Source: a virus | Lineage: Duplodnaviria; Heunggongvirae; Uroviricota; Caudoviricetes | IMG/VR virus record: IMGVR_UViG_2645727991_000015 | Coordinates: 1-15,734 of that record | DNA: 15,734 bases | Reading direction: 5' to 3' (one strand) | In this document: positions 1 to 15,734 of the stretch, piece by piece | Layout: each line of letters starts with the position of its first letter | Numbering within the stretch: the stretch's first letter is position 1 | Notes under the pieces: generated by a model | Told to the model about the DNA's origin: nothing | Database searches by the model: none | What the model saw: the letters and a program-made list of their open reading frames with translations, nothing else | Program-made: the position numbers and the translations under genes

Positions 1-544
1 CAGCAAGTTCATCATAACCCGCCACATCCACCGACTTTTCACGGTAGTTTTTTGCCGCTTTACCGCCCAGGCACCAGAAGCCACGCCCATTAGTGAAACG
101 CTTCATGGTGAGCGTGTTATCCCGGTGCTTTTTGCCATACCACGGGGCCAGCGCCAGCAGCGACGGAATATCACGAATAGTCGGCTCAACGTGGGTTTTC
201 ATAAAGTTCTCGGCATCACCATCCGTCGGCAACCAGATAAGGGTGTTGCGCTGCTTATGCTCTATAAAGTAGGCATAAACACCCAGCAGCATTTTGGAAT
301 AACCAACACGGGCAGACTTCACCACATTCACCTCGCGGATGTAGTCGCTGCCCATCGCATTCATGATGGCCCGCTGAAAGGGCAGTGTTTCCCAGCGCCC
401 TTCCTGGTATGCGGATTCTTTCGGGAGATAGTAATTGGCATCCGCCCATTCAACGGCGGTCTGTGGCTCCGGCCTGAACAGTGAGCGAAGCCCGGCGCGG
501 ACAAAATGCCGCAGCCTGTTAACCTGACTGTTCGATATATTCAC
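1..544 (-). CDS. A: Terminase large subunit gpA, N-terminal part (partial; continues beyond window start)
   Basis: Minus-strand translation from 544 reads VNISNSQVNRLRHFVRAGLRSLFRPEPQTAVEWADANYYLPKESAYQEGRWETLP... and runs open to position 1 (…KAAKNYREKSVDVAGYDELA), matching lambda gpA as I recall it. Initiation codon is GTG at 544..542, overlapping the end of Nu1 by 26 nt as in lambda. Not in the ORF track because it runs off the window. Confidence 0.9.
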   Translation of the reverse strand, partial: MNISNSQVNRLRHFVRAGLRSLFRPEPQTAVEWADANYYLPKESAYQEGRWETLPFQRAIMNAMGSDYIREVNVVKSARVGYSKMLLGVYAYFIEHKQRNTLIWLPTDGDAENFMKTHVEPTIRDIPSLLALAPWYGKKHRDNTLTMKRFTNGRGFWCLGGKAAKNYREKSVDVAGYDELA

Positions 545-1064
545 TCAGCAACCCCGGTATCAGTTCATCCAGCGCGGCTGCTTTGTTCATGGCTTTGATG
601 ATATCCCGTTTCAGGAAATCAACATGTCGGTTTTCCAGTTCCGGAAAACGCCGCTGCACCGACAGGGGGATCCCGTCGAGAATACTGGCAATTTCACCTG
701 CGATCCGCGACAGCACGAAAGTACAGAATGCGGTTTCCACCACTTCAGCGGAGTCTCTGGCATTTTTCAGCTCCTGTGCGTCGGCCTGCGCACGCGTAAG
801 TCGATGGCGTTCGTACTCAATAGTCCCTGGCTGGAGATCTGTCTCGCTGGCCTGCCGCAGTTCTTCAACTTCCCGGCGCAGCTTTTCGTTCTCAATTTCA
901 GCATCCCTTTCGGCATACCATTTTATGACGGCGGCAGAATCATAAAGCACCTCATTACCCTTCCCACCGCCTCGCAGAACGGGCATTCCCTGCTCCTGCC
1001 AGTTCTGAATGGTACGGATACTCGCGCCGAAAATGTCAGCCAGCTGCTTTTTGTTGACTTCCAT
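519..1064 (-). CDS. nu1: Terminase small subunit Nu1
   Basis: 181-aa ORF MEVNKKQLADIFGASIRTIQNWQEQGMPVLRGGGKGNEVLYDSAAVIKWYAERD... is essentially identical to lambda Nu1 from recall; it sits directly downstream of cos and upstream of A. Confidence 0.93.
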   Translation of the reverse strand: MEVNKKQLADIFGASIRTIQNWQEQGMPVLRGGGKGNEVLYDSAAVIKWYAERDAEIENEKLRREVEELRQASETDLQPGTIEYERHRLTRAQADAQELKNARDSAEVVETAFCTFVLSRIAGEIASILDGIPLSVQRRFPELENRHVDFLKRDIIKAMNKAAALDELIPGLLSEYIEQSG

Positions 1065-1149
1065 TGTTCATTCCACGGACAAAAACAGAGAAAGGAAACG
1101 ACAGAGGCCAAAAAGCCCGTTTTCAGCACCTGTCGTTTCCTTTCTTTTC

Positions 1150-1300
1150 AGGGGGTGTTTTAAATAAAAACATTAAGTTACGACGAAGAAGAACGGAAAC
1201 GCCTTAAACCGGAAAATTTTCATAAATAGCGAAAACCCGAGAGGTCGCCGCCCCGTAACCTGTCGGATCGCCGGAAAGGACCCGCAAAATGATAATAATT
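1150..1300. other. cos: cos packaging site (cosN 12-nt cohesive-end sequence at 1242..1253, with flanking cosB and cosQ regions)
   Basis: aggtcgccgccc at 1242..1253 is the reverse complement of the lambda cohesive end GGGCGGCGACCT. The flanking sequence on both sides matches lambda left-end and right-end sequence from recall, with a few substitutions. Nu1 starts about 190 bp away, as in lambda. Confidence 0.85.
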
Positions 1301-1452
1301 ATCATCTGCATGTCACAACGTGCATCTACGCCATCAAACCACGTCAAATAATCAATTATGACGCAGGTATCATATTAATTGATCTGCATCAACTTAACGT
1401 AAAAACAACTTCAGACAATACAAATCAGCGACACTGAATACGGGACAACCTC

Positions 1453-1647
1453 ATGTCAACGAAGAACAGAACCCGCAGAACAACAACCCGCAACATCCGC
1501 TTTCCTAACCAAATGATTGAACAAATTAACATCGCTCTTGAGCAAAAAGGGTCCGGGAATTTCTCAGCCTGGGTCATTGAAGCCTGCCGTCGGAGACTAA
1601 CGTCAGAAAAGAGAGCATATACATCAATCCAAAGTGATGATGGATGA
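1453..1647 (+). CDS. ylcI: Small basic protein, YlcI-like (DUF3950-type) hypothetical
   Basis: 64-aa ORF MSTKNRTRRTTTRNIRFPNQMIEQINIALEQKGSGNFSAWVIEACRRRL...; same size and position (between bor and the Nu1 homolog) as ylcI in DLP12-type prophages. Identity is by recall only. Confidence 0.5.
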   Translation: MSTKNRTRRTTTRNIRFPNQMIEQINIALEQKGSGNFSAWVIEACRRRLTSEKRAYTSIQSDDG

Positions 1648-2009
1648 ACATCCCGGTTTCTTCCACCATCGCACCGGAAAAGCGACTATGAGGGTAACCC
1701 TGCGTCTGTCAGCACAGTAAAACCCGGTGTGCATCGTTTTTGATTATTCCCGCACACTCACGCAGAAGGAATTCCCCGTCGGGCTACGGTCATGGTTAAT
1801 GCGGGAATACGGCGACGATACAGCGCAGCTAAAAGGGTAATAGACGGATAGACCGGTTTATTTCATTCCACAGGATTCTGAGTGTCCCCAACTTCCTCCA
1901 ATAGTCTGAGCGTACACCTATATAGTTTTAATTTTCATCAATCCATTTAACTATCGTTTAATTGTTGTCACATAGGATTCTGCCGTTTTTAACAATGCAG
2001 GATAATAAG

Positions 2010-2303
2010 ATGAAAAAAATGTTGTTTTCTGCCGCTCTGGCAATGCTTATTACAGGATGTGCTCAACAGACGTTTACTGTTGGAAACAAACCGACAGCAG
2101 TAACACCAAAGGAAACCATCACCCATCACTTCTTCGTTTCGGGAATTGGACAGGAGAAAACTGTTGATGCAGCCAAAATTTGTGGCGGCGCAGAAAATGT
2201 TGTTAAAACAGAAACCCAGCAAACATTCGTAAATGGATTGCTCGGTTTTATTACTTTAGGCATTTATACTCCGCTGGAAGCGCGTGTGTATTGCTCACAA
2301 TAA
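2010..2303 (+). CDS. bor: Bor lipoprotein (serum-resistance protein, Iss family)
   Basis: MKKMLFSAALAMLITGCAQQTFTV... carries a lipoprotein signal with lipobox LITGC and is near-identical to lambda Bor by recall. Start set at the ATG at 2010, preceded by a GGA-containing RBS; the track ORF starts further upstream at 1962. Opposite strand to the lysis genes, as in lambda. Confidence 0.88.
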   Translation: MKKMLFSAALAMLITGCAQQTFTVGNKPTAVTPKETITHHFFVSGIGQEKTVDAAKICGGAENVVKTETQQTFVNGLLGFITLGIYTPLEARVYCSQ

Positions 2304-2334
2304 TTGCATGAGTTGCCCATCGATATGGGCAGCT

Positions 2335-2796
2335 CTATCTGCACTGCTCATTAATATACTTCTGGGTTCCTTCCAGTTGTTTTTGCATAGTGATCAGCCT
2401 CTCTCTGAGGGTGAAATAATCCTGTTCAGCGGTGTCTGCCAGTCGGGGGGAGGCTGCATTATCCACGCCGGAGGCGGTGGTGGCTTCACGCACTGACTGA
2501 CAGACTGCTTTGATGTGCAACCGACGACGACCAGCGGCAACATCATCACGCAGAGCATCATTTTCAGCTTTCGCATCAGCTAACTCCTTCGTGTATTTTG
2601 CATCGAGCGCAGCAACATCACGCTGACGCATCTGCATGTCAGTAATTGCCGCGTTCGCCAGCTTCAGTTCTTTGGCATTTTTGTCGCGCTGGGCTTTATA
2701 GGTAATGGCGTTATCACGGTAATGATTAACAGCCCATGACAGGCAGACGATGATGCAGATAACCAGAGCGGAGATAATCGCGGTTACTCTGCTCAT
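2335..2796 (-). CDS. Rz: Spanin inner-membrane subunit Rz (i-spanin)
   Basis: [41 protein letters not shown]... matches lambda Rz (153 aa) by recall. Start ATG at 2796 overlaps the endolysin stop in an ATGA arrangement; the track ORF extends 4 codons further upstream. Confidence 0.9.
2394..2576 (-). CDS. Rz1: Spanin outer-membrane lipoprotein subunit Rz1 (o-spanin), embedded in the +1 frame of Rz
   Basis: 60-aa [54 protein letters not shown]... has a lipobox (VVGC) and a proline-rich region, lies entirely inside Rz in another frame, and matches lambda Rz1 by recall. Confidence 0.88.
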
Positions 2797-3290
2797 TGTT
2801 TCCCCCACAAACAGACTTCACGCTCAATCTCACGGCGAGTCATCAGTCCTTTCCATTGATTACCGCCAGCGTATGTCCAGCGCCGTAGCTGATCACATGC
2901 GCCTTTGATATCACCCTGGTTTATTTTGCGAAGAAGCGTCGATGTTCTGAAATTGCCAGCACCCACGTTGTAGACGAACGAGTAAAGAGCGCCGCGCGTT
3001 GTTTCCGGTATATCGACTTTGATGTACGGGTTAATTTGTCTGGCGACCGTGGCAAGGTCTTTATTCAGGAGGGCTTTGCATTCTGCTTTGGTATACGTTT
3101 TACCGAGCATGATGTCTTTTCCTGTATGCCCGTGACATACAGTCCATACACCAACAATATCTTTGTATGGTATGTAGCTGACACCTTCCAGACCATCGTT
3201 ACCACTTGGGCCAGTAATTAACACTGATGCTATAGCAATTGCTCCGCCACCAATAGCAGCAGCAACGGCTTTTCGTAATGATGGAGGCAT
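2793..3290 (-). CDS. R: SAR endolysin (T4-lysozyme-like muramidase, phage 21 R type)
   Basis: 165 aa with an N-terminal weakly hydrophobic Gly/Ala-rich signal-anchor-release segment ([20 protein letters not shown]) followed by a lysozyme-like region ([17 protein letters not shown]). Resembles the phage 21 / DLP12 RrrD endolysin by recall, not the lambda transglycosylase R. Confidence 0.85.
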
Positions 3291-3505
3291 TATTCACCTC
3301 TCGCAGCCTTGCGCTTATCTTCTTTAATCTTGAAATAAAGGTTTGTCAGGTACGTCAGCAGGCCAAATACCAGGCTACCCAGCACTCCAATTGCCGCCCA
3401 CTGTGAGGGCGTGACTTTATCTAGCAGCTGTAAAAACCAGTACCCGGCACTACCTGCTGAGGTGCCATAGGCGACACCCGTTGTTAACTTATCCATGGAT
3501 TTCAT
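3290..3505 (-). CDS. S: Class II holin (pinholin, phage 21 S type) with dual-start motif
   Basis: 71 aa [71 protein letters not shown]: two predicted transmembrane segments, charged C-terminus, and Met1/Met4 dual starts (MKSM) typical of holin/antiholin pairs. Matches S21 by recall. One-nucleotide overlap with the endolysin start. Confidence 0.88.
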
Positions 3506-4078
3506 AACCCCACCTCGCAGACAAAGCGGGTGTAAATTGAGGGAATACTACGAAACGTAACAGACTCGGAGTCAGTGAATAACTCAGGTATTGGGTTATC
3601 AGCTAATATCGAGACTCAAAAAATGGAAAAACCCACTCGACGGCGGGTTTAAGCTATGTGACGAAGTAACCACTCTTAACAGCATAACCAATTTTTTACG
3701 TACGTAAACCACTAAATGATATTTGCGAGAATGCTACCGAGTATTGAAAACACCACCACAAATACATAAGCAAATCTCAACAAATAACCAACAAATAATT
3801 CCCAGTGTTATTTTTAGCCGATTTAAATTGAACCTTCAAATCATAGAGCACTTATAAATAACAACCGTTAATATAAATTGGCTAATAGATTTATTTTTAT
3901 TCAGCCAAGAGCCATGAATAGGATTCGATAGAAAAAAGTTCAGATAAAAATAGAGATCTACTTCACAAATCAAACGAGAAACCAAAACTTACATCTTGAA
4001 ATAATCATATTGATTAGATGAATATTTATCGCGCAGTGACATCATTTTTTAATAATAGTTCAAAAAAAAGGGCTCACG

Positions 4079-5176
4079 ATGAAAAAATTAACAGTGGCAA
4101 TTTCTGCTGTAGCTGCATCAGTACTGATGGCGATGTCTGCTCAGGCAGCTGAAATTTATAATAAAGACAGTAACAAGCTGGATCTGTACGGGAAAGTTAA
4201 TGCTAAGCACTACTTCTCCTCTAATGATGCAGATGATGGTGATACTACTTATGCCCGTCTTGGCTTCAAAGGTGAAACCCAAATCAACGATCAACTGACT
4301 GGTTTCGGTCAGTGGGAATATGAATTCAAAGGCAACCGCGCTGAATCTCAAGGTTCCTCCAAAGATAAAACCCGTCTTGCCTTCGCTGGCCTGAAATTCG
4401 GTGACTACGGCTCCATCGATTACGGCCGTAACTACGGTGTAGCATACGACATCGGTGCGTGGACTGACGTTCTGCCAGAATTCGGTGGCGATACCTGGAC
4501 CCAAACAGATGTGTTCATGACTGGTCGCACCACTGGTGTAGCAACCTATCGTAACAACGACTTCTTTGGTCTGGTTGATGGTCTGAACTTTGCTGCTCAG
4601 TACCAAGGCAAAAACGATCGTAGCGATTTCGATAACTACACCGAAGGTAACGGTGATGGCTTCGGTTTCTCTGCTACCTATGAATACGAAGGATTCGGTA
4701 TCGGTGCAACTTATGCGAAATCTGATCGTACCGACACTCAAGTTAATGCAGGGAAAGTTCTTCCTGAAGTATTTGCTTCCGGTAAAAATGCAGAAGTTTG
4801 GGCCGCAGGTCTGAAATATGACGCTAACAACATTTACCTGGCCACTACCTATTCTGAAACCCAGAATATGACTGTATTTGCTGATCACTTCGTTGCTAAT
4901 AAAGCTCAAAACTTCGAAGCTGTTGCACAATATCAGTTCGATTTCGGTCTGCGTCCATCCGTTGCTTACCTGCAATCTAAAGGTAAGGATCTTGGAGTAT
5001 GGGGCGATCAGGACTTAGTCAAATATGTTGATGTAGGTGCAACCTATTACTTCAACAAAAATATGTCTACTTTCGTTGATTACAAAATCAACCTGCTTGA
5101 CAAAAATGACTTCACTAAAGCACTCGGTGTAAGCACTGATGACATCGTTGCTGTAGGTCTGGTTTACCAGTTCTAA
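4079..5176 (+). CDS. nmpC: Outer-membrane general porin, OmpC/NmpC (Lc) family, prophage-encoded moron
   Basis: 365 aa with a signal peptide ([25 protein letters not shown]), Gly/Tyr/Asp-rich beta-strand repeats and the C-terminal ...VGLVYQF ending in Phe, typical of enterobacterial 16-strand porins. Its position between Q and the holin on the opposite strand matches nmpC in DLP12-type prophages. Strong RBS (aaaagggctcacgATG). Confidence 0.88.
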
Positions 5177-5185
5177 TCTGATTAC

Positions 5186-5226
5186 GAAAAAGATATGTTG
5201 CGGGAGGCTTTGCCTCCCCAACATAT
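5186..5226 (-). terminator. Intrinsic terminator-like hairpin on the minus strand, candidate tR' of the late operon
   Basis: Near-perfect inverted repeat atatgttgcgggaggc/ttt/gcctccccaacatat at 5193..5226. On the minus strand the stem is followed by CTTTTT. Lies about 140-180 nt downstream of the Q stop, where a lambdoid tR' would be. Confidence 0.45.
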
Positions 5227-5365
5227 AAGTGGCTCCCTCAAGCCACTTCCTTTAGGAGCACAACCTTGCTTCTAACTATATAAACCTTCTGTTATATATT
5301 ACCCTTTATTTTTGGGGGCGTTGCAACGCCCCATTTTTAATAATTTTTAGTAAACAACTGGCATA
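5227..5365 (-). promoter_or_regulatory. Approximate location of late promoter pR' and Q-utilisation region (inferred from position only)
   Basis: Intergenic segment immediately downstream of Q on the minus strand and upstream of the tR'-like hairpin. Only weak sigma70-like hexamers are visible (e.g. TTGCAA ... GGTAAT on the minus strand); exact promoter not resolved. Confidence 0.3.
5314..5338 (+). terminator. Rho-independent terminator on the plus strand (likely porin gene terminator)
   Basis: Perfect palindrome ggggcgttgcaacgcccc at 5315..5332 followed by ATTTTT on the plus strand; about 140 nt downstream of the porin stop codon. Confidence 0.6.
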
Positions 5366-5749
5366 TTAATTAGAGTTATTAACAACGATATCCATCTCTA
5401 ACCGGATATCTAATGCCATTAACATCCCTTCAATTATGCCCTCAGCCTTCTGTAACCTTTTCCCGATATAACCATCAGAGCAGCAATGCTTACCTGCCAG
5501 TGACATGAATGTCATACCGACTACATAATAATCTACTAATAAATCGTGCAAATCGCTGTTGTTCTTTTTCAGACGGGCCATGCACCCGCAAATAATCATC
5601 GCGTCATCGTCACAACATTGCGGGCGAGATTTTACTTTTGAAGTAATTAATCCCTTAAAACCGGCGGCAATGGACGACCAGGTCACATCTTCATGATTAT
5701 TAGCCGCCCACGCTCCCCAACGCTCAAGAACCATCTGAATATCACGCAT
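5366..5749 (-). CDS. Q: Late-gene antiterminator Q (QuuD / phage 82-type Q family)
   Basis: [35 protein letters not shown]...[16 protein letters not shown]... (127 aa from the ATG at 5749, with a GGAG RBS 8 nt upstream; the track ORF starts at an upstream TTG). Matches DLP12 QuuD by recall; cysteine-rich putative zinc-binding region; located upstream of the lysis cassette. Confidence 0.8.
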
Positions 5750-5834
5750 CAACTTACTCCACAAAAATCAGGCCAGAACGCCAATTACAAGCAAAAATCA
5801 ACAAAACAGTATTAGTTGATTGTTATCTCTGACT

Positions 5835-5975
5835 TCATACTCCTGCTCCTGTCAGGGTTTTGGCGTAATTCTTCAGTATTCGGTAATCGGTCAAAACAGA
5901 ACCGGGGGAACGATATAAGCGCAGACGCCCCCAGCGGTGGCGAAGAAGTTCTGCCATATTAAACTCAAACATCAT
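5835..5975 (-). CDS. ylcG: Small nin-region protein YlcG-like
   Basis: 46-codon [49 protein letters not shown] found by manual translation (below the track size cutoff). Its start overlaps the rusA stop in an ATGA arrangement; same size and position as ylcG in DLP12. Confidence 0.6.
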
Positions 5976-6334
5976 TCATTCCCCATTTCGGTGATGGTCA
6001 GTTCCAGCCTCCCACCTTTGGTAACAGGCATCTTCACAACGCGGTAATCAACGACCTGAGCATCATCCAGCCAGAAACCTGCTTTAGTGAGTGCGTCAAA
6101 AGCGGCTTTTTGCAGATTATCCAGGTCACGGCGACGGAGATCCGGCATGTGGCACTCAATGCGGATTTTCACAGGCATAGCCAGGCCGATATCCAGCATT
6201 GCGTTTTTAATGATTCGGGCGACGTTATCGCGGTATGCCTGCACCTCTGCGCTGACGTGCGTGCGCCCGCGATTATGGCGGTAATAGCGATTATTGCTCG
6301 GAGGCCAGGGTAATGTGATGCTGTAGGTATTCAC
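5972..6334 (-). CDS. rusA: Holliday junction resolvase RusA
   Basis: 120 aa [93 protein letters not shown]... matches RusA by recall. Confidence 0.92.
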
Positions 6335-6621
6335 GCCTTAATAACCCCCTCTTTCAGCCAGATAACCTGTGTTCTCGCCATACCTTCCAGCGCGCATTCT
6401 TTTGCATATGCAGCATCGACAAAATGTGTGCGGCGGTCGATTTCGTCGTGGCAGGCAGAACATGCAATGGTGGCAATCAGGTCTGGCGGTTTGGTACCGG
6501 TGCCGCACAATCCAGTCAGCCGGATATGTGCCAGTACAGACGTTTCAGGGTTGCCATTACATACGCCAGGGATTCTTACCTGGCATTCCCGACCACGCGC
6601 TGCTTTTCTCAAATCAGCCAT
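6331..6621 (-). CDS. ybcO: YbcO-like nin-region protein (putative nuclease, cysteine-rich)
   Basis: [64 protein letters not shown]... (96 aa from the ATG at 6621, which overlaps the ninE stop; the track ORF extends upstream in frame). Matches DLP12 YbcO by recall. Confidence 0.85.
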
Positions 6622-6784
6622 GACTCCTCCTTGCTGCCAGTCGCAACCATTTTTTATCAACCAGGCTGGCGGTATACCCGAGCAGTGTTGGTATTTCGGA
6701 TGGCTTCAGCTCAGGTTTACGCTTACGACGATTTGGTACTCTGTAGATGTGTCCGTTCATGACACGAATAAGCGGTGTAGCCAT
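6614..6784 (-). CDS. ninE: NinE protein
   Basis: Manual translation gives 56 aa [56 protein letters not shown], matching lambda/DLP12 NinE by recall. Start overlaps the ybcN stop (TAATG) and the stop overlaps the ybcO start. Confidence 0.85.
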   Translation of the reverse strand: MATPLIRVMNGHIYRVPNRRKRKPELKPSEIPTLLGYTASLVDKKWLRLAARRSHG

Positions 6785-7239
6785 TACGCCTCCTGCTTGT
6801 CGCGCAGCAGCTGGAACTCGCAGCTCTGCGGAATAGTCAGGTGGCAGCCAATATTCATCGCCCAGGCTTCAACCTTACACAGGAAGACATACATCTCTCC
6901 GGTATCGAGATCGGAGGTATGACGTAATGACTGAATGGTGGTGATTTCACCGGTTACGACATCAACCAGTTCTTTGGTTTCATAACCGAGATAAGTGTGT
7001 TTGAGAGCATCTTTTACCCAAGCTGGAGTGGCGAACGTTTTACCCCTGCTGATGAGGTATTCACTGATTTCGCTGTACCACATGTGGCTGAGTGCATTCT
7101 GGGAAAGACTGCGTCTCTCTCGCCACGGTTTAAGCACCATGCGAAAGCATTTGCCTTCCTCCAGATAAGGCTGGATCTGCTGGCCGATAGCGGTGAAGTT
7201 GCCGCGATGTAATTTGATGCCGTCTTGTGAGAGGTTCAC
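6784..7239 (-). CDS. ybcN: YbcN-like nin-region protein
   Basis: 151 aa (M)[57 protein letters not shown]...; GTG start at 7239 with GGAGG RBS upstream. Matches DLP12 YbcN by recall. Confidence 0.85.
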
Positions 7240-7423
7240 GCTTCACCTCCGCAGAGGTCAAACGCTAGATGCAAAGAATTGCAGGTGCATTTCTGCATCT
7301 GTGAAGGGAGAAGAGAGTTTGGATTGTATGTGCGCATAAACGTCCCCGTTTAGCGCAGAAGTCACCGGAGTTGTTCAGGCTCCGATGACATGATTATGGC
7401 GGGTTGATAACGAAAAATCAAAA

Positions 7424-7525
7424 CTACTTTTTGGTGTTCTGTTCGGCCATTTCGATGTAGCGCGGATCAGATGCGCTGGCTATTCTCTGGCGACCCGTTC
7501 CGCTATCATCGGCATGTTCAAACAT
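7424..7525 (-). CDS. Possible small ORF (33 aa), YlcH-like by position and length
   Basis: Manual translation MFEHADDSGTGRQRIASASDPRYIEMAEQNTKK, preceded by an in-frame TAA. No convincing Shine-Dalgarno sequence. The only support is that DLP12 has a 33-aa ylcH gene just upstream of ybcN. Confidence 0.3.
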   Translation of the reverse strand: MFEHADDSGTGRQRIASASDPRYIEMAEQNTKK

Positions 7526-7575
7526 TTTGTAAGCGTCACCGGAGGTGGTGAGATCAACGTTACATTACTATATTT

Positions 7576-7611
7576 ATAATAAGCCTCAATTCAAACATTG
7601 AGGCTTATTAT
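7576..7611. repeat. Perfect 15-bp inverted repeat / stem-loop (ataataagcctcaat-tcaaac-attgaggcttattat) at the boundary of the AT-rich insert
   Basis: Read directly from the sequence: arms 7576..7590 and 7597..7611 are exact reverse complements, 10 nt downstream of the RloB-like stop codon. No U-tract follows on either strand, so it is not a canonical intrinsic terminator. Confidence 0.7.
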
Positions 7612-7621
7612 AATGAAAAAA

Positions 7622-8257
7622 TTACGGCACAAATGAATCTATAGCATCAAGCAACTCATTCACATTCGTATAACACCCAAGAAGAAATGGTCTATTAGAA
7701 TGAGGAGGAGCTGCATTTAAACTTTGTTTATTTAGTGCCTTCGCTCTTTGTCTGGCATTAGGAATACCAAGTCTAATTTTCTTATACAACGTAGCATCGG
7801 CTTTATTATAATCCTTTATACCCACTGATAGTAAATCTTTTTTCAAAGTAGAGTTTTTCTTTAGATCATCAAAACTTGAGTAAGGTGTATTCTTAAATGC
7901 AAAGTGTTGTAAAATCCACAATTCAAAACAAACATTTGACAACGCAATATTAATATTGTTTGCATGGGCTAAATCCCATGCTTCATGGTGTAATGTGTGT
8001 GGGTATTTTGTGACAGCCTCTCTATCATATACAACCCAAAATTCATCATCATCCGATGTATCACCACTTTCCTTGTGTTTAATTGCAGCCTTTACTAAGG
8101 CTATTGGTGTGTTATATTTTATATCAGGGATATGTATAACTTTTGCTTTCTCACTAGCAAATTCATCGATATAACCCTGCAAGTACATAGGTTCTGTTTT
8201 AGACCCTTCGCAAAAAATATGCATTCGTTTCTCTAATTTTCTCACGTTTTTTGCCAT
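7622..8257 (-). CDS. RloB-like protein (AbiLii-like; putative effector/partner of the upstream ATPase)
   Basis: 211 aa with N-terminal motif ...HIFCEGSKTEPMYLQGYI..., which I recognise as the conserved CEGxxTEPxY signature of the RloB family (recall, not searched). Strong RBS AAGGTGA; separated by 6 nt from the upstream ATPase gene; AT-rich codon usage unlike the flanking phage genes. Confidence 0.65.
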   Translation of the reverse strand: MAKNVRKLEKRMHIFCEGSKTEPMYLQGYIDEFASEKAKVIHIPDIKYNTPIALVKAAIKHKESGDTSDDDEFWVVYDREAVTKYPHTLHHEAWDLAHANNINIALSNVCFELWILQHFAFKNTPYSSFDDLKKNSTLKKDLLSVGIKDYNKADATLYKKIRLGIPNARQRAKALNKQSLNAAPPHSNRPFLLGCYTNVNELLDAIDSFVP

Positions 8258-8263
8258 GATCTA

Positions 8264-9604
8264 TCACCTTAAATCTTCTGGAATATCATCGATGTTACCA
8301 AATACTGTTAAATCAGTATCTTCAGGTTCACCACCTGTTACCTCAATGATAAAATCCTTTATTTTCATATAGTTAATTGATGGGACGCCACCAAAACGCC
8401 CTTCATCATACCACTTGTTAAAAGGTGAGTTAGCCTTAACCTTTTCTTTATCAAACTCATCTAAACTATAAACTTCGGTTACACCTTTTTTCTTTTCAGT
8501 AAACCAAATCTGATCTCTTCTCATATTTTCTGATTTCATCAACTCAATGTTATGAGTTGTAAATATGAGCTGAGAGCCTACTTTATTAACCTCACTATCG
8601 TTAAACAGTCTGATTAAAAGTGCAGCCAAATGTGGATGCATGCTGTGGTCTATTTCATCGATAATTAACACTCGATTTATTAAAAGACCAGAAATTAGGG
8701 CAGGTGTTAATTCAAATAACCTACGAGTTCCTGCTGACTCATTTTCAATATCTATATCAGCACATTCTCCACCCTCCATGTCATGCTCAAATTTAAAGCT
8801 AAATCGATTTTCAGCCAAAATTCTTCGTTTCATATCTTCCGGCATTTCATCAGGTAGCTTAATATCTAGTTCTTTATTTTCGACAATCCTTAGTTGGTTT
8901 ATACCCGTATCAACCAATGATAAGAAGTTACCGGAAAAACGAATAAGCATGTCTCTAAATTTCTCATCCTCAAGATGAAGAGCATTAAAACTTGATTCCA
9001 TTCCAATAGGACAAATTAACTGCGAAAAGTACTCATATACTTCCTTAGCAATCTCTGGAGCCTCAGCGACAGTGCCGATCTTTGATAGATAAGAGTTATT
9101 TTTAGAAAATGGAATTTTCTTTACTCCACCTTTGAATTGCGCCCCAAATTTAATATTCTCCCAACCATTATTCACACGATAGAACAAATTCGATGGCTGC
9201 TTGGAGTAATAACAATCTAAACTCTCCAATATAATTTCTTTTTGAAGATAATGTATTTTATATTTAAATTTCAAATCATTGATCACAAAGTCAATTTCAA
9301 ACTTTACTGGCTTTGAGATTGTTTTTTGACAAAGAGAATATGGTTCATAACAAGGGATATCCTCGCCATCTTTCAACGAAAAGCTATCCTCAACAAGATA
9401 ATTTAATGCAGAAAACACCTTTAGAAGGTTTGACTTCCCTGAAGCATTAGGACCATAAATTCCAACGGTACGTACAACCCGCTCATTGCTTTTGGGAAGA
9501 ACAAGCAAATTATCGCTTAAGTGGTTACTTGTTGAACTACGCAGATCAAAGTTAACCTCTTCTTTGATCGACCTAAAATTCTCAACTTTTAAGGAAATTA
9601 TCAT
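8264..9604 (-). CDS. ABC-type / AAA_21-like ATPase (AbiLi-like; putative anti-phage abortive-infection ATPase)
   Basis: 446 aa with Walker A GPNASGKSN, Walker B VLIIDEIDHSMHP and an H-loop-like LIFTTHN. AT-rich; forms a tight two-gene operon with the RloB-like gene. Confidence 0.75.
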   Translation of the reverse strand: MIISLKVENFRSIKEEVNFDLRSSTSNHLSDNLLVLPKSNERVVRTVGIYGPNASGKSNLLKVFSALNYLVEDSFSLKDGEDIPCYEPYSLCQKTISKPVKFEIDFVINDLKFKYKIHYLQKEIILESLDCYYSKQPSNLFYRVNNGWENIKFGAQFKGGVKKIPFSKNNSYLSKIGTVAEAPEIAKEVYEYFSQLICPIGMESSFNALHLEDEKFRDMLIRFSGNFLSLVDTGINQLRIVENKELDIKLPDEMPEDMKRRILAENRFSFKFEHDMEGGECADIDIENESAGTRRLFELTPALISGLLINRVLIIDEIDHSMHPHLAALLIRLFNDSEVNKVGSQLIFTTHNIELMKSENMRRDQIWFTEKKKGVTEVYSLDEFDKEKVKANSPFNKWYDEGRFGGVPSINYMKIKDFIIEVTGGEPEDTDLTVFGNIDDIPEDLR

Positions 9605-9960
9605 AAAACGATCCTCTAAAACGTACTTTTACAGTAAAAAAATGACAAAAAATGCCTAATCACGAGATTGTAATCTATAATAATATACTTTTATACAACT
9701 ATTTCTTGGTTTTGTACCCTTATAAGCACAAGAAGAATGCAATCATCATATTGAGTTACTACAAGAGCTGGACTGCCCCCTTCCGGAAGACGATCTTGCC
9801 CGATAGTTTCTTCCCTCCACTCCCACGGGTCTACGCCAGTTGGGCATCCTGAAAACTCCCGACAATCTCGATGGTTTCCAGCGCTGCTATGGGGTCGTTC
9901 ATGATAATTATATTAAGTTTGACCAAAAACTGACTTCACCTTCAGAAGGAGCGCAGTTAA

Positions 9961-10161
9961 TCAAATCGATAATTTCTTCAGGTGTCTCTTTAACGTCGAT
10001 ATACTCGCCAGAGGATATTTCAGAGTTGTAATACCATGCAGAGTCATGATAACGATATGCCCTACGGCAACAAACACAGGCTCGAAGACTGTTTCAGGTT
10101 CCCAGCCATATTTCCCCTGACGCTCAATCGTCGCTTGCTGGCTCAATTTGATGATTTTCAT
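9961..10161 (-). CDS. Hypothetical small protein, start coupled to the ren stop (possibly a truncated remnant of a nin gene)
   Basis: 66-aa ORF MKIIKLSQQATIERQGKYGWEPETVFEPVFVAVGHIVIMTLHG... whose ATG overlaps the ren stop in an ATGA arrangement. No recognisable family; lies at the edge of the AT-rich insert. Confidence 0.35.
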   Translation of the reverse strand: MKIIKLSQQATIERQGKYGWEPETVFEPVFVAVGHIVIMTLHGITTLKYPLASISTLKRHLKKLSI

Positions 10162-10451
10162 GTCTTAGCTCTCCCATATACCGCCAATACCCGTTTCATC
10201 GCGGCACTCTGGCGACACTCCTTAAAAATCAGATTCGTGCTCACCTTTCCTTCCCGTTCTTCTCTGGTAGCGAACCGGTAATACACCGTTCGCCAGACCT
10301 TACCATCAACGACCAGGATTCCTGCCCGCGCCATTTTAGCCGCAGCCTGATTTATGCTGGTTACGGTTGCGCCTGTTACCGCGGCAACGTCCTGCGCACA
10401 GAAGTTCTTATGAGTCCCCAGGTAATGAATAATTGCCTCTTTGCCCGTCAT
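10158..10451 (-). CDS. ren: Ren (Rex-exclusion resistance protein)
   Basis: 97 aa MTGKEAIIHYLGTHKNFCAQDVAAVTGATVTSINQAAAKMARAGILVVDGKVWRTVYYRFATREEREGK... matches lambda Ren by recall; immediately downstream of P. Confidence 0.88.
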   Translation of the reverse strand: MTGKEAIIHYLGTHKNFCAQDVAAVTGATVTSINQAAAKMARAGILVVDGKVWRTVYYRFATREEREGKVSTNLIFKECRQSAAMKRVLAVYGRAKT

Positions 10452-11149
10452 ACACTTACTCCTTTCAGCCCAAACTTAGCTTTGATTTCTGCGATCTTCG
10501 CCAGAGCCTGTGCACGATTTAGAGGTCTACCGCCCATGACAGGAAGTTGTTTTACTGGTTCAGGTATAGCCTCACCACGGTTAATTCGTGCGGCCATACA
10601 GGACAGTTCATCGGCAGCCTTGCGCCGTAATTCCGCGTCAGTCAACGCATTGGCCCGCATGTTCTGATACAGGTTGGTAACCAGCCAGTAGTGCGCGTTT
10701 GATTTCCACGGATAAGACTCTGCATCCGGATACAGGCCACGCTTCCGGCAATACTCGTAAACCATATCAACCAGCTCGCTGACGTTTGGCAGCCCGGCGT
10801 TAACAGATGCTTCTTCCCGGCACCAGGCGACAAACTGCCCGGGTGATGGCAGGAATGGTCGATTCTGCCGACGGGCTACGCGCATTCCAGCGTTAACCTG
10901 TTCCATTGTGGTGATCCCGTTTTCCCGGAAAGCCAGAACCCACTGGCGGCGGATTTCGTTCAGTTCATTCTGGTCACGGTTAGCCAGGCTCGCCGGGAAA
11001 GTTGCCAGTAACTGGCTGAACACACCGTTGATGATCTGCGCTACCTGCTGTACCTGCGGCTTTTCGTCGTACTGTTCCGGCATATTGTTGGCGATCCGGC
11101 GCATCTGCTCACGGTCAAAGTTAACCATCTGTGCGGCGATGTTTTTCAT
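10448..11149 (-). CDS. P: Replication protein P (DnaB helicase loader)
   Basis: 233 aa MKNIAAQMVNFDREQMRRIANNMPEQYDEKPQVQQVAQIINGVFSQLLATFPASLANRDQNE... is near-identical to lambda P by recall; overlaps the O stop. Confidence 0.93.
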   Translation of the reverse strand: MKNIAAQMVNFDREQMRRIANNMPEQYDEKPQVQQVAQIINGVFSQLLATFPASLANRDQNELNEIRRQWVLAFRENGITTMEQVNAGMRVARRQNRPFLPSPGQFVAWCREEASVNAGLPNVSELVDMVYEYCRKRGLYPDAESYPWKSNAHYWLVTNLYQNMRANALTDAELRRKAADELSCMAARINRGEAIPEPVKQLPVMGGRPLNRAQALAKIAEIKAKFGLKGVSV

Positions 11150-12075
11150 AAATCCACCCCGTAAATCCAGTCAGTGTTCGTCAGGTCGAGTTTTGGTTTG
11201 CCGGCTGTCACGCCAGCCTGTTGCTTGTTTCGGTTGATTTCGAGCTGGGTCCACTTGTCGCGGAGTTTGGCCGGACTCAGCACGTTACCGGACCAGAAGT
11301 TGTCCTGGCATGCCCAGCGGAACAGCACGCACATGTCGCGGTGGTTACGTCCGTCACGTTCACGCATCAGGCGGATATCGTTAGCCCACCCTGCAAAATT
11401 CGGTTTTCTGGCTGATGGCGCGATGGTCTTCACCATGTCAAACATCCACTCTGCGGCGGTCAGGTCTTCTGCTGTCCCCCACTTGCTGCCACTCTGAATT
11501 GCAGCATCCGGTTTCACCACAGGAAGGTCGTTTTCTGGCTGGTCAGAGGATTCGCCAGAATTCTCGGACGAAAAAGGTTTTATATTGTCTTTTGTTAGTT
11601 TGTCTTTTGTGTTTACCTGATTCGGGTAAACGCCTTTACCTGATTTGGGTAAACTTTTCTTACCTGATTCAGGTAAATTTACCTCTTTCAGGTAAACTTT
11701 ATTTTTCTTACCTGATTCGGGTAATGTTGACCATTCACTGACCACATTATTAATGCCGATATTTCGCCCGCTCTGAATAAGAATCCCACGCTTTACCAGA
11801 ACGCTTTTTGCAGCAGAACACTTGTGCGGCAATATCCCGGTCAATTCGGAAAGTTGCTCGTTGCTCACCCAATCCAGTCTTTTATTAAAGCCATATGTTT
11901 TGCGCATGACAGCCAGGAAGACCAGAAGCTGGTGCTGTGTTAATCCGGCCAGCATCACAGCTTCCAGCAACTCATTTGCAATGCGCGTATAACCATCATC
12001 GAGATCTGCCACGCGCGGCTCCTTTTGTGCCGCATCCGGCACTGGAAAATTGAATATCTCAGCAGTGTTTGCCAT
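11146..12075 (-). CDS. O: Replication initiator O (lambda-like C-terminal domain, non-lambda N-terminal iteron-binding domain)
   Basis: From the ATG at 12075 (RBS GGGAG): MANTAEIFNFPVPDAAQKEPRVADLDDGYTRIANELLEAV... aligns with lambda O MTNTAKILNF...VADLDDGY..., and the C-terminal half (SSENSGESSDQPENDL...WIYGVDL) is near-identical to lambda O by recall. An alternative in-frame start at 12165 (the track ORF) overlaps the upstream gene stop in an ATGA arrangement. Confidence 0.88.
   Translation of the reverse strand: MANTAEIFNFPVPDAAQKEPRVADLDDGYTRIANELLEAVMLAGLTQHQLLVFLAVMRKTYGFNKRLDWVSNEQLSELTGILPHKCSAAKSVLVKRGILIQSGRNIGINNVVSEWSTLPESGKKNKVYLKEVNLPESGKKSLPKSGKGVYPNQVNTKDKLTKDNIKPFSSENSGESSDQPENDLPVVKPDAAIQSGSKWGTAEDLTAAEWMFDMVKTIAPSARKPNFAGWANDIRLMRERDGRNHRDMCVLFRWACQDNFWSGNVLSPAKLRDKWTQLEINRNKQQAGVTAGKPKLDLTNTDWIYGVDL
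11575..11724. repeat. ori: Replication origin inside O: AT-rich tract (11575..11612) plus five 17-bp iterons TTACCTGATTCGGGTAA (11613..11629, 11636..11652, 11660..11676, 11679..11695, 11708..11724)
   Basis: Five direct repeats with the same 17-mer core and inverted ends (TTACC...GGTAA) read directly from the sequence, spaced 19-29 bp start to start, with an AT-rich segment on the transcription-downstream side. Same organisation as lambda ori but a different iteron sequence. Confidence 0.8.
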
Positions 12076-12161
12076 AATTACTCCCGCAATGAGTGTGTTA
12101 CGATTTGCACCTGAAAGTCGGTTCTGTTCCAGCAGACCGGCTTTCGCCATTTCTGAACCTG

Positions 12162-12707
12162 TCATATTGCCCCCAGCATGGTGGTGACCATCGCCATCAG
12201 TGGACCAGCCAAATCCGGGTCCACACGAAACATCGACACAATGCCTTCACTCATCTCCTTCAGTTTCTGGTGGCGTGGTGCGTTGAGAATGACAGCCTGT
12301 TTTGCCTCACTGAGTTCCTTTTCCATTTCAGCCAGCCGAGCCATGAAGCTATCCTGCTCAACCAGGTGGCCGCGATATTTCAGCGGTAGTACTGCCAGAA
12401 TTGCTGGAGTCAGTTCACGCACGTTATTTCGGTATTTTTCAGAATCGAATTTGTTATCGAGAAAGCGGAACAGCTTCTGGCGTGCACGACTGACATCATC
12501 AGGAAAATCGATAGTGCCGCCGCCCTGTGCTCGATACTAATTCACAATGAGTGCGGCAACGACATCCTGATTATCTACAGCCGACCAGGCGCGGATGGCA
12601 TCACGGATTTTTTCGTGGCCTGGCACCTGTTTTATTTGAGAACGATTTATCACCGCAGTCGGGATAAATCCGCTAGTCTGTTGGTATGTAAGTGGTTGCA
12701 TAGTCAT
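12162..12707 (-). pseudogene. cII-position gene (YdaT-like by recall) interrupted by a single in-frame TAG at 12537..12539
   Basis: A 56-codon ORF (MTMQPLTYQQTSGFIPTAVINRSQIKQVPGHEKIRDAIRAWSAVDNQDVVAALIVN, stop TAG) and the track ORF 12162..12422 are in the same frame; the only stop between them is that TAG. Read-through would give about 181 aa (...VN*YRAQGGGTIDFPDD...LTPAILAVLPLKYRGHL...). Confidence 0.55.
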
Positions 12708-12731
12708 TGCCTTATCAGTTAACGCCGCAGT

Positions 12732-12959
12732 TTAGGCGGCAGAATTACTCGCGTTAAACAATGGTGCGAGGTCGGGACGAATATCTGCTGGTTTAATCTT
12801 TCCACCAGTGGCTGAGACAATTTTCATTACATAGCGGGCATCAATTCCGCCACCGTGTAGCCAACGCCAAACAGTGGGTTGGGCTACACCGCATAGATCT
12901 GCCAGTCGTTTTTGACTACCTGTAATACTGATTGCGAGTTGAATGGTTTGATTTGTCAT
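12732..12959 (-). CDS. cro: Cro-like HTH DNA-binding protein (YdaS/Cro family)
   Basis: 75 aa from the ATG at 12959 (RBS AGGAA): MTNQTIQLAISITGSQKRLADLCGVAQPTVWRWLHGGGIDARYVMKIVSATGGKIKPADIRPDL...; helix-turn-helix-like segment; divergent from the CI-like repressor across a roughly 110-bp operator region. Confidence 0.7.
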   Translation of the reverse strand: MTNQTIQLAISITGSQKRLADLCGVAQPTVWRWLHGGGIDARYVMKIVSATGGKIKPADIRPDLAPLFNASNSAA

Positions 12960-13069
12960 TATCAATTCCTACTGGTATTGCAATGAATGAATAATAGCAA
13001 TGCGTATTAATCCAAGCAATAGCAAAACGTGTTTTGACCATCAATACGCAAGCGTATAAATTAAAACTT
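12960..13069. promoter_or_regulatory. Divergent immunity control region (putative OR operators with pR and pRM)
   Basis: 110-bp AT-rich intergenic region between the divergent cro-like and cI-like genes. Contains repeated ATAGCAAT-type motifs (12993..13009, 13016..13028) and an imperfect palindrome atacgcaagcgtat (13044..13057). No Shine-Dalgarno sequence precedes the cI ATG, consistent with a leaderless pRM transcript as in lambda. Confidence 0.55.
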
Positions 13070-13762
13070 ATGAAAAAAGAAACTCTTGCTGATCGCTTAA
13101 ACCTAGCGATGGAACAATCTGGAATGTCTCAAGGCGCTCTTGCAAAGGCGTCTGGCGTAGCTCAACCCACAATCTGGAGACTGACAAGCGGCAACGCGCG
13201 CGGCTCAACAAAAATTGTTGAAATAGCTAATGCATTGGGTGTTCGAACAGAATGGCTCTCATCAGGCATAGGCCCGATGAGAAATGACGGTCAACAATCA
13301 GGGAAGCCTGCTGTCAGCCATTCCAAATACTTCAAAATTGACGTTCTTGATATAGAAGTCAGTGCCGGGCCGGGTGTAATCAACCGTGAGTTTGTAGAAG
13401 TTCTACGCTCGGTTGAGTACTCGTTTGACGATGCTCGTCACATGTTCGATGGCAGGAAGGCGGAAAATATCCGCATCATTAACGTGCGTGGTGACAGCAT
13501 GTCAGGAACGATCGAACCAGGTGATCTGCTGTTCGTTGATATCACGGTTAAATCTTTCGACGGTGATGGTATCTATGCGTTTCTGTACGACGACACAGCC
13601 CATGTAAAGCGCCTGCAAATGATGAAAGATAAGCTACTGGTTATCTCTGATAACAAGAGCTACTCACCGTGGGACCCGATCGAGAAAGACGAGATGAACC
13701 GGGTGTTCATCTTCGGTAAGGTTATTGGGAGCATGCCGCAGACGTACAGGAAGCATGGTTAA
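13070..13762 (+). CDS. cI: CI-like prophage repressor (N-terminal HTH, C-terminal S24 LexA-like autopeptidase domain)
   Basis: From the ATG at 13070: MKKETLADRLNLAMEQSGMSQGALAKASGVAQPTIWRLTSGN... (HTH), with C-terminal ...INVRGDSMSGTIEPGDLLFVD...HVKRL... (Ser and Lys residues of the S24 catalytic dyad in the usual spacing). The track ORF starts at an upstream TTG (13034). Confidence 0.85.
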   Translation: MKKETLADRLNLAMEQSGMSQGALAKASGVAQPTIWRLTSGNARGSTKIVEIANALGVRTEWLSSGIGPMRNDGQQSGKPAVSHSKYFKIDVLDIEVSAGPGVINREFVEVLRSVEYSFDDARHMFDGRKAENIRIINVRGDSMSGTIEPGDLLFVDITVKSFDGDGIYAFLYDDTAHVKRLQMMKDKLLVISDNKSYSPWDPIEKDEMNRVFIFGKVIGSMPQTYRKHG

Positions 13763-13843
13763 TAATTAGCCTGTAGCTTTTTAAGGCACACTCTTTTCAA
13801 GAATATTAAATAGAACGCTATATGGCATAAACAAGGACTTAGG

Positions 13844-14317
13844 ATGGAAAAGCCTAGCTTCCCACCTCTTCTTACAGCAGGATTTCATGATATGGATAGT
13901 GATGGCATCAAGTCTCTTTGTGTCGACACCTTCCCAAAATCCGTTAGAAGAAGTATGCTATACTGTAATTTTATACAGCTTATTGAGCAATTTAAACTTG
14001 TTAATCAGCAGTGTCTATGTTTCTCTGAAGTGTGGATCGATGGTTCATTCACTACAGAGAAACCTGAACCTGATGACATAGATATACTCGTGGTCGTCGA
14101 TTATTTGGCCCTAAACTCTTTGCCAAACACGCTGATGCCATTGGTTAGCTCATTGTTAAATAGAGATTTTATTAAAGAAAACTACAGCATTGACGTTCTT
14201 TTGCTGCCTGAAAATCATCCAGAAATCGATTATAGTGAAAGGCGAAGTTACTGGAGAGGGTGGTTTGGTTTTGATCGGAAGGAGAATCCTAAAGGCCTCG
14301 TGAGGGTAATGTTATGA
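13844..14317 (+). CDS. Hypothetical protein with nucleotidyltransferase-like motif, first gene of the rex-position operon
   Basis: 157 aa; contains WIDGSFTTEKPEPDDIDILVVVD, resembling the GS...DxD signature of minimal (Pol-beta superfamily) nucleotidyltransferases. Directly downstream of cI with no intervening terminator; stop overlaps the next start (ATGA). Confidence 0.5.
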   Translation: MEKPSFPPLLTAGFHDMDSDGIKSLCVDTFPKSVRRSMLYCNFIQLIEQFKLVNQQCLCFSEVWIDGSFTTEKPEPDDIDILVVVDYLALNSLPNTLMPLVSSLLNRDFIKENYSIDVLLLPENHPEIDYSERRSYWRGWFGFDRKENPKGLVRVML

Positions 14318-15246: not shown

Positions 15247-15253
15247 TGATGCT

Positions 15254-15281
15254 ACCCGGCCACCGTGCCGGGTTTTCTTTT
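15254..15281 (+). terminator. Rho-independent terminator ending the cI/rex-position operon
   Basis: Hairpin cccggc-caccgt-gccggg at 15255..15272 followed by TTTTCTTTT, 8 nt after the stop codon of the 310-aa gene. Confidence 0.75.
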
Positions 15282-15379
15282 GCCTCCCCCTCATCACACA
15301 AACCGTTCGAAAAACCACCATAACCCCCGCTTCAGTTATCGCTATGCGATGCAAGTCACAAAATTAATTCTTTTTGCTA

Positions 15380-15480
15380 TCAAGCATTTAATATCAAAAC
15401 ACATCAGCCAATAGCGATAAGTATTGATATCACCAATAGCAATAGCTATTATCACCATATCGCAACAACACAACGATACG
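15380..15480 (+). promoter_or_regulatory. Putative OL/pL region (operator-like repeats upstream of the expected N operon)
   Basis: Contains CAATAGC-type motifs similar to those in the cro-cI intergenic region (ccaatagcgataag, caccaatagcaatagctatt), the palindrome AATAGCTATT (15452..15461) and two TATCACC copies. Position matches OL/pL in a lambda-like layout; promoter hexamers not resolved. Confidence 0.4.
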
Positions 15481-15734
15481 GCAACCACCTGATTCACCGT
15501 TGCGATGACCGCTTAGATCCGCAGCTTGAATTTCAGCAGGCTCCGGGGAGTGCGAGGGGTGAAGCGGACGCGTGAACGTCGGTGTGACCAGCTGAAATCA
15601 ACTCAACACCTCATACCTCAGTCGCTTCAACGAGGCGTATGAAACGACAATAACTCAGTCCGCCTGGCGCCGATTATTCTGGCCGGTTTTGTAACCTGAG
15701 TGTCATTTACATGATCCAACAGGAAATGGCGTGA

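Follow-up and report, generated by a model that had tools for sequence, protein, structure and literature searches.

An antisense porin cassette of a lambdoid prophage probably lies outside the late operon, between the Q antiterminator gene and its predicted late promoter

The sequence analysed here, positions 1 to 15,734 of the IMG/VR virus record IMGVR_UViG_2645727991_000015 (15,734 nt, hereafter the window), is part of a lambdoid prophage in which the rightward phage direction corresponds to the minus strand. An intact porin gene of the Lc/NmpC type is located on the plus strand (4079–5176), between the minus-strand genes for the Q antiterminator (5366–5749) and the holin S (3290–3505). On the basis of homology and of a comparison of viral contigs, the porin cassette very probably stands outside the late operon, as a self-contained, lysogen-expressed unit in a gap of ca. 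1.7 kb (~3712–5387) between the 3′ end of Q and the cognate late promoter pR′, so that late transcription would start past the porin. The sequence features listed in an earlier sequence-only reading of the region, among them an intact porin gene of the OmpC/NmpC family between minus-strand Q and holin genes, were all confirmed, with coordinates that agree to one or two bases. Its further proposal, that the Q-modified late transcript must run antisense through the whole porin gene before reaching S, is most likely wrong; the late transcript most likely begins ca. 170 nt ahead of S and leaves the porin gene untouched. The porin cassette itself is already known, and the correction concerns the mechanism of the late transcript.

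The predicted pR′ was placed by promoter scan at 3708–3681 on the minus strand, with the −35 box TTTACG (3708–3703), a 16-nt spacer and the −10 box TATGCT (3686–3681). A perfect 14-bp palindrome, TTTACGTACGTAAA (3695–3708), overlaps the −35 box and the spacer and is the candidate Q-binding site, and downstream of the promoter lies the initial transcribed region (3658–3678), which contains the 13-mer TAAGAGTGGTTAC and covers the position of the ‘qut’ site of phage 933W. A tR′-like intrinsic terminator was detected by terminator scan at 3650–3618 as the hairpin AAACCCGC/GUGGGUUU followed by UUCCAUUUUUUG (also written AAACCCGC/GTGGGTTT, then TTCCATTTTTTG); one position of its stem is G.U on the minus-strand RNA and an A.C mismatch on the plus strand. 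The promoter, the conserved initial transcribed region and the intrinsic terminator of a lambdoid late module are all present at 3708–3618, and no other homologue of a Q-dependent late promoter block occurs in the window. Adjacency to Q is lacking, the −35 box being ca. 1.66 kb from the Q stop codon.

Window positions 3709–3627 (minus strand) match 933W positions 20665–20746 (L097 166–247) with 74.7% identity over 83 nt (E-value 2.6e-9), and the matched 933W stretch spans the annotated pR′, qut and first terminator. The 933W block is built alike, with the −35 box TTTACG, a 16-nt spacer, TATCAT, the ‘qut’ site and a hairpin terminator. Shared by 933W (and H-19B) and the window are the TATxxT −10 box, the 14-bp palindrome, TAAGAGTGGTTAC, and the hairpin AACCCGCCG...GGGTT with its U tract, and the Q proteins are homologous; the centre of the palindrome reads TA in the window and AT in 933W. 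The 13-mer TAAGAGTGGTTAC is invariant in an alignment of 933W, SfII, phiP27, K-12 and the window, and both it and the palindrome TTTACGTACGTAAA are single-copy in the window. The two layouts differ in spacing and cargo: in 933W the −35 box is inside the 3′ end of Q, whereas in the window Q and pR′ stand ca. 1.7 kb apart, with antisense cargo between them; and the cargo of 933W (tRNAs, stx) lies downstream of the terminators, in sense orientation and late-expressed, whereas in the window S directly follows tR′. A tRNA search of the window returned none. PMC7918800 describes the lysis operon of the K-12 prophage DLP12 as controlled by a phage Q-type antiterminator. In the same study, expression from a reporter fragment, the primers of which map to −646..+125 relative to the essD start and so leave out the Q–porin spacer, responded to pH and osmolarity, in agreement with a late promoter on the S side of the porin.

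The distance between Q and this block was surveyed in viral contigs (IMG/VR) scanned for TAAGAGTGGTTACNTNGNCAC, which gave at least 120 loci (L099–L218). A Q homologue was found in 100 of them, always upstream and on the same strand, and in 19 of the 20 loci without one the sequence available upstream is shorter than 1.6 kb. Only one motif-bearing contig of greater upstream length (3.9 kb), L155 (IMG/VR contig 2698536522_000001), has no detectable Q homologue. Q abuts the motif (41–75 nt) in a 933W-like manner in 24/100 contigs. An antisense porin occupies the interval (ca. 1.67–1.69 kb) in 34/100, and other inserts of 0.63–2.48 kb in 42/100, with the longest open reading frame (ORF) antisense in 36 of these 42. 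Inserted cargo, mostly antisense, thereby separates the block from Q in 76/100 contigs. The cargo sampled from these gaps included a KAP NTPase (PDC-S20), an HNH-like protein (PDC-M68A-like), NA37-family pairs, lipoproteins and unknown two-gene sets, as exemplified by L117 1650–2978, L145 1424–2167 and L206 3719–5918. Even variants with unrelated sequence past the motif keep a hairpin and a U tract there. The pattern shows the porin cassette as filling what appears to be a recurrent insertion slot between Q and pR′.

Across the same contigs (at least 120), the palindrome over the −35 box and spacer was found to track the Q allele. TTTACGTACGTAAA goes with Q proteins 95–100% identical to that of the window, TTTACGATCGTAAA with those 71–82% identical, and GCGGTCCGC or GCGTACGC with those 45–52% identical, and inside one Q allele class the palindrome is the same despite differing insert sizes. 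Because of the 933W homology and this comparative contig pattern, we identify 3708–3618 as the putative cognate late regulatory block of the window Q. For the Q933W/QuuD branch as a whole, it is somewhat probable that the junction of Q and pR′ is a general slot for lysogen-expressed, mostly antisense cargo outside the late operon, and that the palindrome is the branch's candidate Q-binding element, its symmetry being unlike that of the Q-binding element (QBE) of phage 21, which is a direct repeat.

The Q gene (QuuD type) encodes 127 residues from the ATG at 5749, the mechanically called ORF (5366–5764) beginning at TTG 5764. The protein matches PF06530 over its whole length (1–118/118, E-value 4e-53) and, distantly, the solved Q21 structures 6P18 and 6JNX (E-value 7e-7). 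At the nucleotide level the gene shares ca. 75–78% identity with its counterparts in Stx phages, YYZ-2008, VT2-Sakai and Min27 among them, and the Q proteins of related contigs are 71–82% identical. Homology to Q933W stops after ‘RLEMD’ (~5390), from which the window Q continues for 7 residues and Q933W for 24.

In lambda, phage 21 and 933W the late promoter sits right behind the 3′ end of Q or overlaps it. In the model of the sequence-only reading, pR′ likewise comes immediately after Q, with the Q-modified transcript running antisense through the small RNA (sRNA) IpeX, the porin gene and its upstream region to S. The spacer between Q and the porin does offer a direct repeat, CTAAAAAT/TTAAAAAT, at 5350–5333 after a weak −35-like TTGTTT, and a minus-strand hairpin with a U tract (5228–5188), which is readable as a tR′ at ca. 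140–175 nt past Q. Yet the TTGTTT candidate would require ‘ATGGGG’ as its −10 box, and a consensus scan of the minus strand of the spacer gave no acceptable sigma-70 promoter, the weak pairs reaching at most 8/12 consensus positions and the best of them requiring a 19-nt spacer. No known pR′ block is homologous to the spacer, and a direct alignment of it with the Q-downstream region of 933W gave no homology either; on the opposite strand, IpeX explains the spacer in full. Together with the single occurrence of the family's conserved promoter block, at 3708–3618, and the inserts that part this block from Q in three quarters of the contigs, these findings make a pR′ directly behind Q very unlikely. 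The homology at 3708–3618, between the porin and S, instead favours initiation of the late transcript downstream of the porin gene, an outcome that the sequence-only reading had itself named as refuting its model.

The minus-strand hairpin in the spacer, a candidate intrinsic terminator, has a stem of 15 bp with one bulge followed by CUUUUUCG (−22.7 kcal/mol, z −5.65), is the complement of IpeX stem-loop 1, and is situated immediately before the porin 3′ end on the Q side. It is best read as stopping early-right (Q-side) transcription ahead of the porin. This fits the result in K-12 that an extra terminator added to the nmpC/quuD spacer was without effect (PMC11677980), the authors of which found that transcription from the quuD side fails to reach the IS5 element in nmpC and suggested intrinsic terminators as the likely reason.

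Several points weigh against placing the late start at 3708–3618 as described. The assignments of pR′, of the Q-loading site and of tR′ draw on homology and comparative pattern, and the 933W features used for the homology carry the GenBank label ‘putative’. The co-variation of palindrome and Q allele could come from linkage instead of binding. In the Sakai Stx phages the terminated pR′ RNA is 258 nt long (PMC7547250), which, judged from 933W coordinates, appears to fit the second 933W terminator better than the first; the first hairpin, here at 3650–3618, may for that reason terminate incompletely or belong to a pause site. The stem of the window tR′ has a G.U pair, and 16 viral variants have a weaker stem. 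Finally, if the phage has an N-type antiterminator, N-modified early transcription could cross the porin antisense in lytic growth.

Such N-antiterminated transcription from the early-right promoter pR, running past Q and antisense through the porin, would silence porin and IpeX after induction and is compatible with a late start downstream of the porin. In lambda, N-modified polymerase ignores intrinsic terminators, and the hairpin 5228–5188 is the only barrier to early-right read-through in the window. Q is the last gene of the minus-strand early-right operon, which runs from the cro/cII-like genes via O, P, nin, rusA and ylcG. No N gene or nut site was seen in the window, where no dedicated test for them was made, and we regard this read-through as a possibility of somewhat less than even chance.

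A different driver of the lysis genes is implied by literature on the K-12 prophage. In PMC7918800, with reference to Rueggeberg et al. 2013 and 2015, the SRRz operon is stated to be under a Q-type antiterminator and the sigma-E factor RpoE, so that a sigma-E promoter ‘essDp’ upstream of essD, with Q acting there, could be the main driver in place of the sigma-70 pR′. A sigma-E-like sequence, TGAACTA-N16-TCACT, is indeed present at 4062–4035 (minus strand). The ‘−121 to +650’ range published for the essD reporter (PMC7918800) fits the mapped primers only as ca. −650..+121 of the essD start and yields no start site; an ‘essDp’ start at ~4030 derived from the published range was dropped, since the primers show the range to be probably reversed. 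The sigma-E-like −10 is moreover changed in the Escherichia albertii copy of the region, and the 933W-type block accounts for Q dependence without a new sigma factor. Functional phages need a promoter for some 25 kb of late genes, from which we infer that a standard late promoter is favoured. A sigma-E promoter as the main driver is therefore considered unlikely, and the 933W-type block at 3708–3618 is retained as the predicted late promoter.

The porin gene is an intact ORF of 365 residues, the product of which covers the complete PF00267 (Porin_1) model in a Pfam profile search (1–337/337, E-value 1e-156). Chains of OmpC, OmpK36 and PhoE, which are solved trimeric 16-strand porins, match residues 24–365 with E-values of 1e-131 to 1e-135. 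The N terminus is a Sec signal peptide, cleaved at the site given in the annotation of lc of phage PA-2. The C-terminal sequence, ...VGLVYQF, ends in the aromatic residue (Phe) that is a feature of outer-membrane assembly. Two residues (R99H, V154F) distinguish the protein from PA-2 Lc (99.5% identity), and two also from K-12 NmpC with IS5 removed, whereas identity is 62% to OmpC and 58% to OmpF. An identical protein occurs on at least 1000 contigs, where it is named Lc, NmpC or OmpC. The near-identity to Lc and NmpC and the location between Q and S of a lambdoid prophage assign the gene to the Lc/NmpC phage subgroup, and it is identifiable as the classical Lc/NmpC lysogenic-conversion gene, long known (1975–86), with IpeX added in 2006. 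According to Hindahl 1984 and Schnaitman 1975, as cited in PMC11677980 and PMC8065619, Lc/NmpC forms pores and its presence converts the outer-membrane profile of the lysogen.

The closest layout is that of PA-2 lc (GenBank J02580; Blasband, Marcotte and Schnaitman 1986), where the entire 2.8-kb record has the same order of Rz-R-S, regulatory region, porin, spacer and Q 3′ end, and differs from the window by the two amino-acid changes mentioned and a few substitutions in the spacer. In DLP12 (qsr′) of E. coli K-12, quuD-nmpC-essD-rrrD have the same order and orientation and the block is 97.7% identical; in K-12, however, IS5 splits nmpC behind codon 346, while the window porin is uninterrupted, and DLP12 is a defective prophage, whereas the window has early, replication, lysis and packaging (Nu1) genes, the head and tail genes lying beyond it. 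E. coli chromosomes with the annotation quuD/porin/essD/rrrD match the block 3290–5800 at 99.8% identity. Among temperate phages, PhiR30_1, Kati and mEp332 match it at 98–99%, as does 434B, which derives from phage 434 and carries an acquired DLP12 qsr′ segment. At least 80% of the block was found in one place in 2,396 of 5,426 complete E. coli genomes, so the arrangement is not due to chance.

Porin alleles of other phages are 87–99% identical at the DNA level, with flanks kept at 93–99%. Among the alleles of eight phages and strains, the differences concentrate in three blocks of the coding sequence (4590–4640, 4740–4790 and 5090–5140), where column identity is 63–75% as against 93–99% in the remainder of the gene and the flanks, a distribution suggestive of diversifying surface loops. 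A 285-residue antisense ORF within the porin gene (4118–4975) was dismissed as a gene because close alleles break its frame and comparable stop-free antisense stretches are found in ompC (336 residues) and ompF (265 residues).

More distant relatives belong to the same subfamily in other settings. Salmonella OmpD and the chromosomal OmpD-type porins of Citrobacter and Enterobacter are 74–79% identical in amino acids, and the flanks of the chromosomal ompD loci gave zero detectable similarity to the window, with no common promoter region, IpeX or phage context. The alignment to NmpC, OmpD and Lc that the sequence-only reading had proposed gives two differences each from NmpC and Lc and this lower identity to OmpD-type porins. 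The P1-like plasmid prophage P7 (L096 2501–3758) carries an nmpC homologue with 74% nucleotide identity, and the 140 nt past its stop codon are weakly similar to IpeX (97/141). In Escherichia albertii (L017 231–2667), bor, the porin and IpeX alone remain beside ycgN-ycgM-minC, with neither Q nor lysis genes; here the conversion genes have outlasted the prophage. This locus was considered as a natural experiment with a different Q and dropped, as it is a remnant without Q or S. An E. coli match in which homology starts at 5395 was set aside as merely an IS3 insertion.

Whether the window porin could itself be a decaying, unexpressed remnant was considered in view of the IS5 insertion after codon 346 in both K-12 and phage 434B and of IS3 or IS1 insertions nearby in some genomes. 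The reading frame in the window is nevertheless intact, including the signal peptide, the full Pfam match and the C-terminal Phe, and conservation extends to the promoter region, the CRP site, IpeX and the terminator. In a lysogen of the related prophage Perceval of strain LF82, NmpC was expressed 10-fold over the local background (PMC9928086), and the K-12 promoter PnmpC is active, its transcription start site (TSS) ‘G’ having been mapped by 5′ rapid amplification of cDNA ends (PMC11677980). Decay of the window porin is thus extremely unlikely.

The regulatory region of the porin (3713–4078, plus strand) contains a CRP site, a box resembling ompC site C1 and a candidate −10 box. Its GC content is 29.5%, against 44.8% for the whole window. 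The description of the entire upstream region as AT-rich, as given in the sequence-only reading, holds for this part and fails for the S-proximal 3506–3712, which has 43% GC and is a separate element. A CRP-like site, AGAGATCTACTTCACA, at 3952–3967 (site 3950–3970) is the sole match to the core xGxGA-N6-TCxCx in 3700–4078, and is kept in the otherwise diverged upstream region of E. albertii. The PA-2 record J02580 annotates two CRP sites, which are both present in the window; they map to 3950–3970, where the core search had found the site independently, and to 3654–3674. The second of them falls, on the opposite strand, on the conserved ‘qut’ stretch that is transcribed first from the predicted late promoter, and may not be a CRP site at all.

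The ompC-promoter-like 40-mer, from which OmpR-type regulation had been suggested, is present at 3989–4028, and a box at 3988–4007 agrees with ompC site C1 at 14/20 positions. This box was also the best hit upstream of the porin in a search with a position weight matrix built from six ompC and ompF sites, but 68% of shuffles scored as high, and in E. albertii the TTACAT half of the box is changed. The scan thus does no better than chance, and a role of OmpR, as a repressor, comes from the literature: as PMC11677980 summarises from Blasband 1986 and Coll 1994, K-12 PnmpC has two sites for activation by CRP, and OmpR, IHF and MprA act as its repressors. The literature and the CRP-like site point to CRP activation of the porin with OmpR as a repressor. 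With AATAAT (4000–4005) as the candidate −10 box, the TSS would be G4012 and the leader 67 nt long, close to the 69 nt of the Salmonella ompD leader (PMC3333887).

Between the porin stop codon and the terminator lies a stretch of 167 nt (5177–5343, plus strand), the 3′ untranslated region (UTR) of the porin mRNA, which forms five stem-loops, the last being the terminator, and folds at −62.4 kcal/mol (z −7.9). It is identical at 163/167 positions to K-12 DLP12, and likewise to PA-2. Published IpeX is a DLP12-encoded sRNA of 167 nt derived from the 3′ part of the porin transcript (PMC12197685), and because length, DLP12 origin and position 3′ of the porin all agree, 5177–5343 is identifiable as IpeX, which the sequence-only reading had overlooked. 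An Rfam search, at gathering and permissive thresholds, returned no family for IpeX or the pR′ leader. IpeX represses OmpC and OmpF (PMC12197685, PMC5069750, PMC3333887) and ties the porin cassette to a changed host porin composition (PMC5069750, PMC12197685), in agreement with the earlier suggestion that a phage-encoded porin can change outer-membrane permeability and receptor availability.

The plus-strand terminator of the porin, previously placed at 5314–5338, was recovered by the terminator scan at 5315–5343 as the hairpin GGGGCGTTGCAACGCCCC (5315–5332) followed by the T tract ATTTTTAATA, and since the stretch from stop codon to terminator is IpeX, it is the IpeX terminator as well. It folds at −13.9 kcal/mol and ends 23 nt from the Q stop codon, and substitutions between alleles are confined to the loop of its hairpin. 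In the E. albertii remnant, homology to the window ends at this terminator, which puts the apparent right edge of the porin cassette at ~5341. The description of the porin as a moron antisense to Q and S agrees with its near-identity to Lc/NmpC, with its own terminator and with the own promoter documented for the 97.7%-identical K-12 copy (PMC11677980). The porin is likewise missing from 933W-type relatives, where Q abuts pR′, has a low-GC regulatory region, and survives alone in E. albertii.

In order from high to low coordinates, the window carries genes for a cI-type repressor (13034–13762, plus strand, from the gene annotation), the cro/cII-like ydaS/ydaT, O, P, an AbiL pair, a ninB-like gene, ybcO, rusA, Q, the porin, S, R, Rz, bor and Nu1. 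The holin S, the first late gene, is of the S21 type (PF04971), and is followed on the minus strand by the endolysin R (2793–3290, PF00959) and Rz (2335–2808, PF03245). Just upstream of the dual start codons of S, a stable hairpin, CCCGCUUUG...CGAGGUGGG (3506–3535, minus strand), sequesters the holin Shine-Dalgarno sequence and is similar to the fold by which other lambdoid S genes set their ratio of holin to antiholin. In the S leader, at ~3551, 5/7 compared alleles have an insertion of 16–17 nt (GTATCGCAA.AAAAGCA), which is absent from the window, PhiR70_1 and K-12. An AbiLi (446 residues, E-value 1.8e-83) and AbiLii/RloB (211 residues) defence pair forms an island of 33% GC at 7622–9604 (minus strand) in the nin region of the early-right operon. 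Directly past cI, two plus-strand genes (13844–15246) match the candidate defence pair PDC-M63A/B (E-values 7e-43 and 4e-42); the first is a DUF6932 gene, and the pair has a rexAB-like position.

A homologue of the bor lipoprotein gene is located on the plus strand between Rz and Nu1 (1962–2303). Lambda bor, like the porin, is a lysogen-expressed envelope-protein gene opposing late transcription. The two differ in position, bor being downstream of pR′, within the late operon and crossed antisense by the late transcript, whereas the porin cassette is predicted to lie upstream of pR′.

The arrangement proposed for the window is a plus-strand cassette composed of a CRP-dependent promoter, the porin gene, the 167-nt sRNA IpeX in the 3′ UTR and an intrinsic terminator, which would point towards Q and away from pR′. 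A lysogen would express the cassette independently, and Lc/NmpC, aided by IpeX, would take the place of OmpC and OmpF, altering permeability and the set of receptors that other phages can use. After induction, Q would load at pR′ (3708–3658) and pass tR′ (3650–3618), where transcription would otherwise terminate, and S-R-Rz onward would be transcribed without crossing the porin, while transcripts from the Q side would end at 5228–5188. Of all this, the slot for cargo that separates Q from pR′ and the palindrome as a candidate Q site may be the only parts that are under-described.

The cassette represents textbook lysogenic conversion, in which the swap of the major host porins affects permeability, the entry of antibiotics and phage receptors; almost half of the complete E. 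coli genomes carry it. Its position upstream of pR′ would uncouple its expression from the lytic late transcript, in contrast to stx, which is downstream of pR′; the distinction matters for predicting which prophage cargo is made in the lysogen and which only upon induction. It also matters for the annotation of late promoters in the many prophages where pR′ does not directly follow Q.

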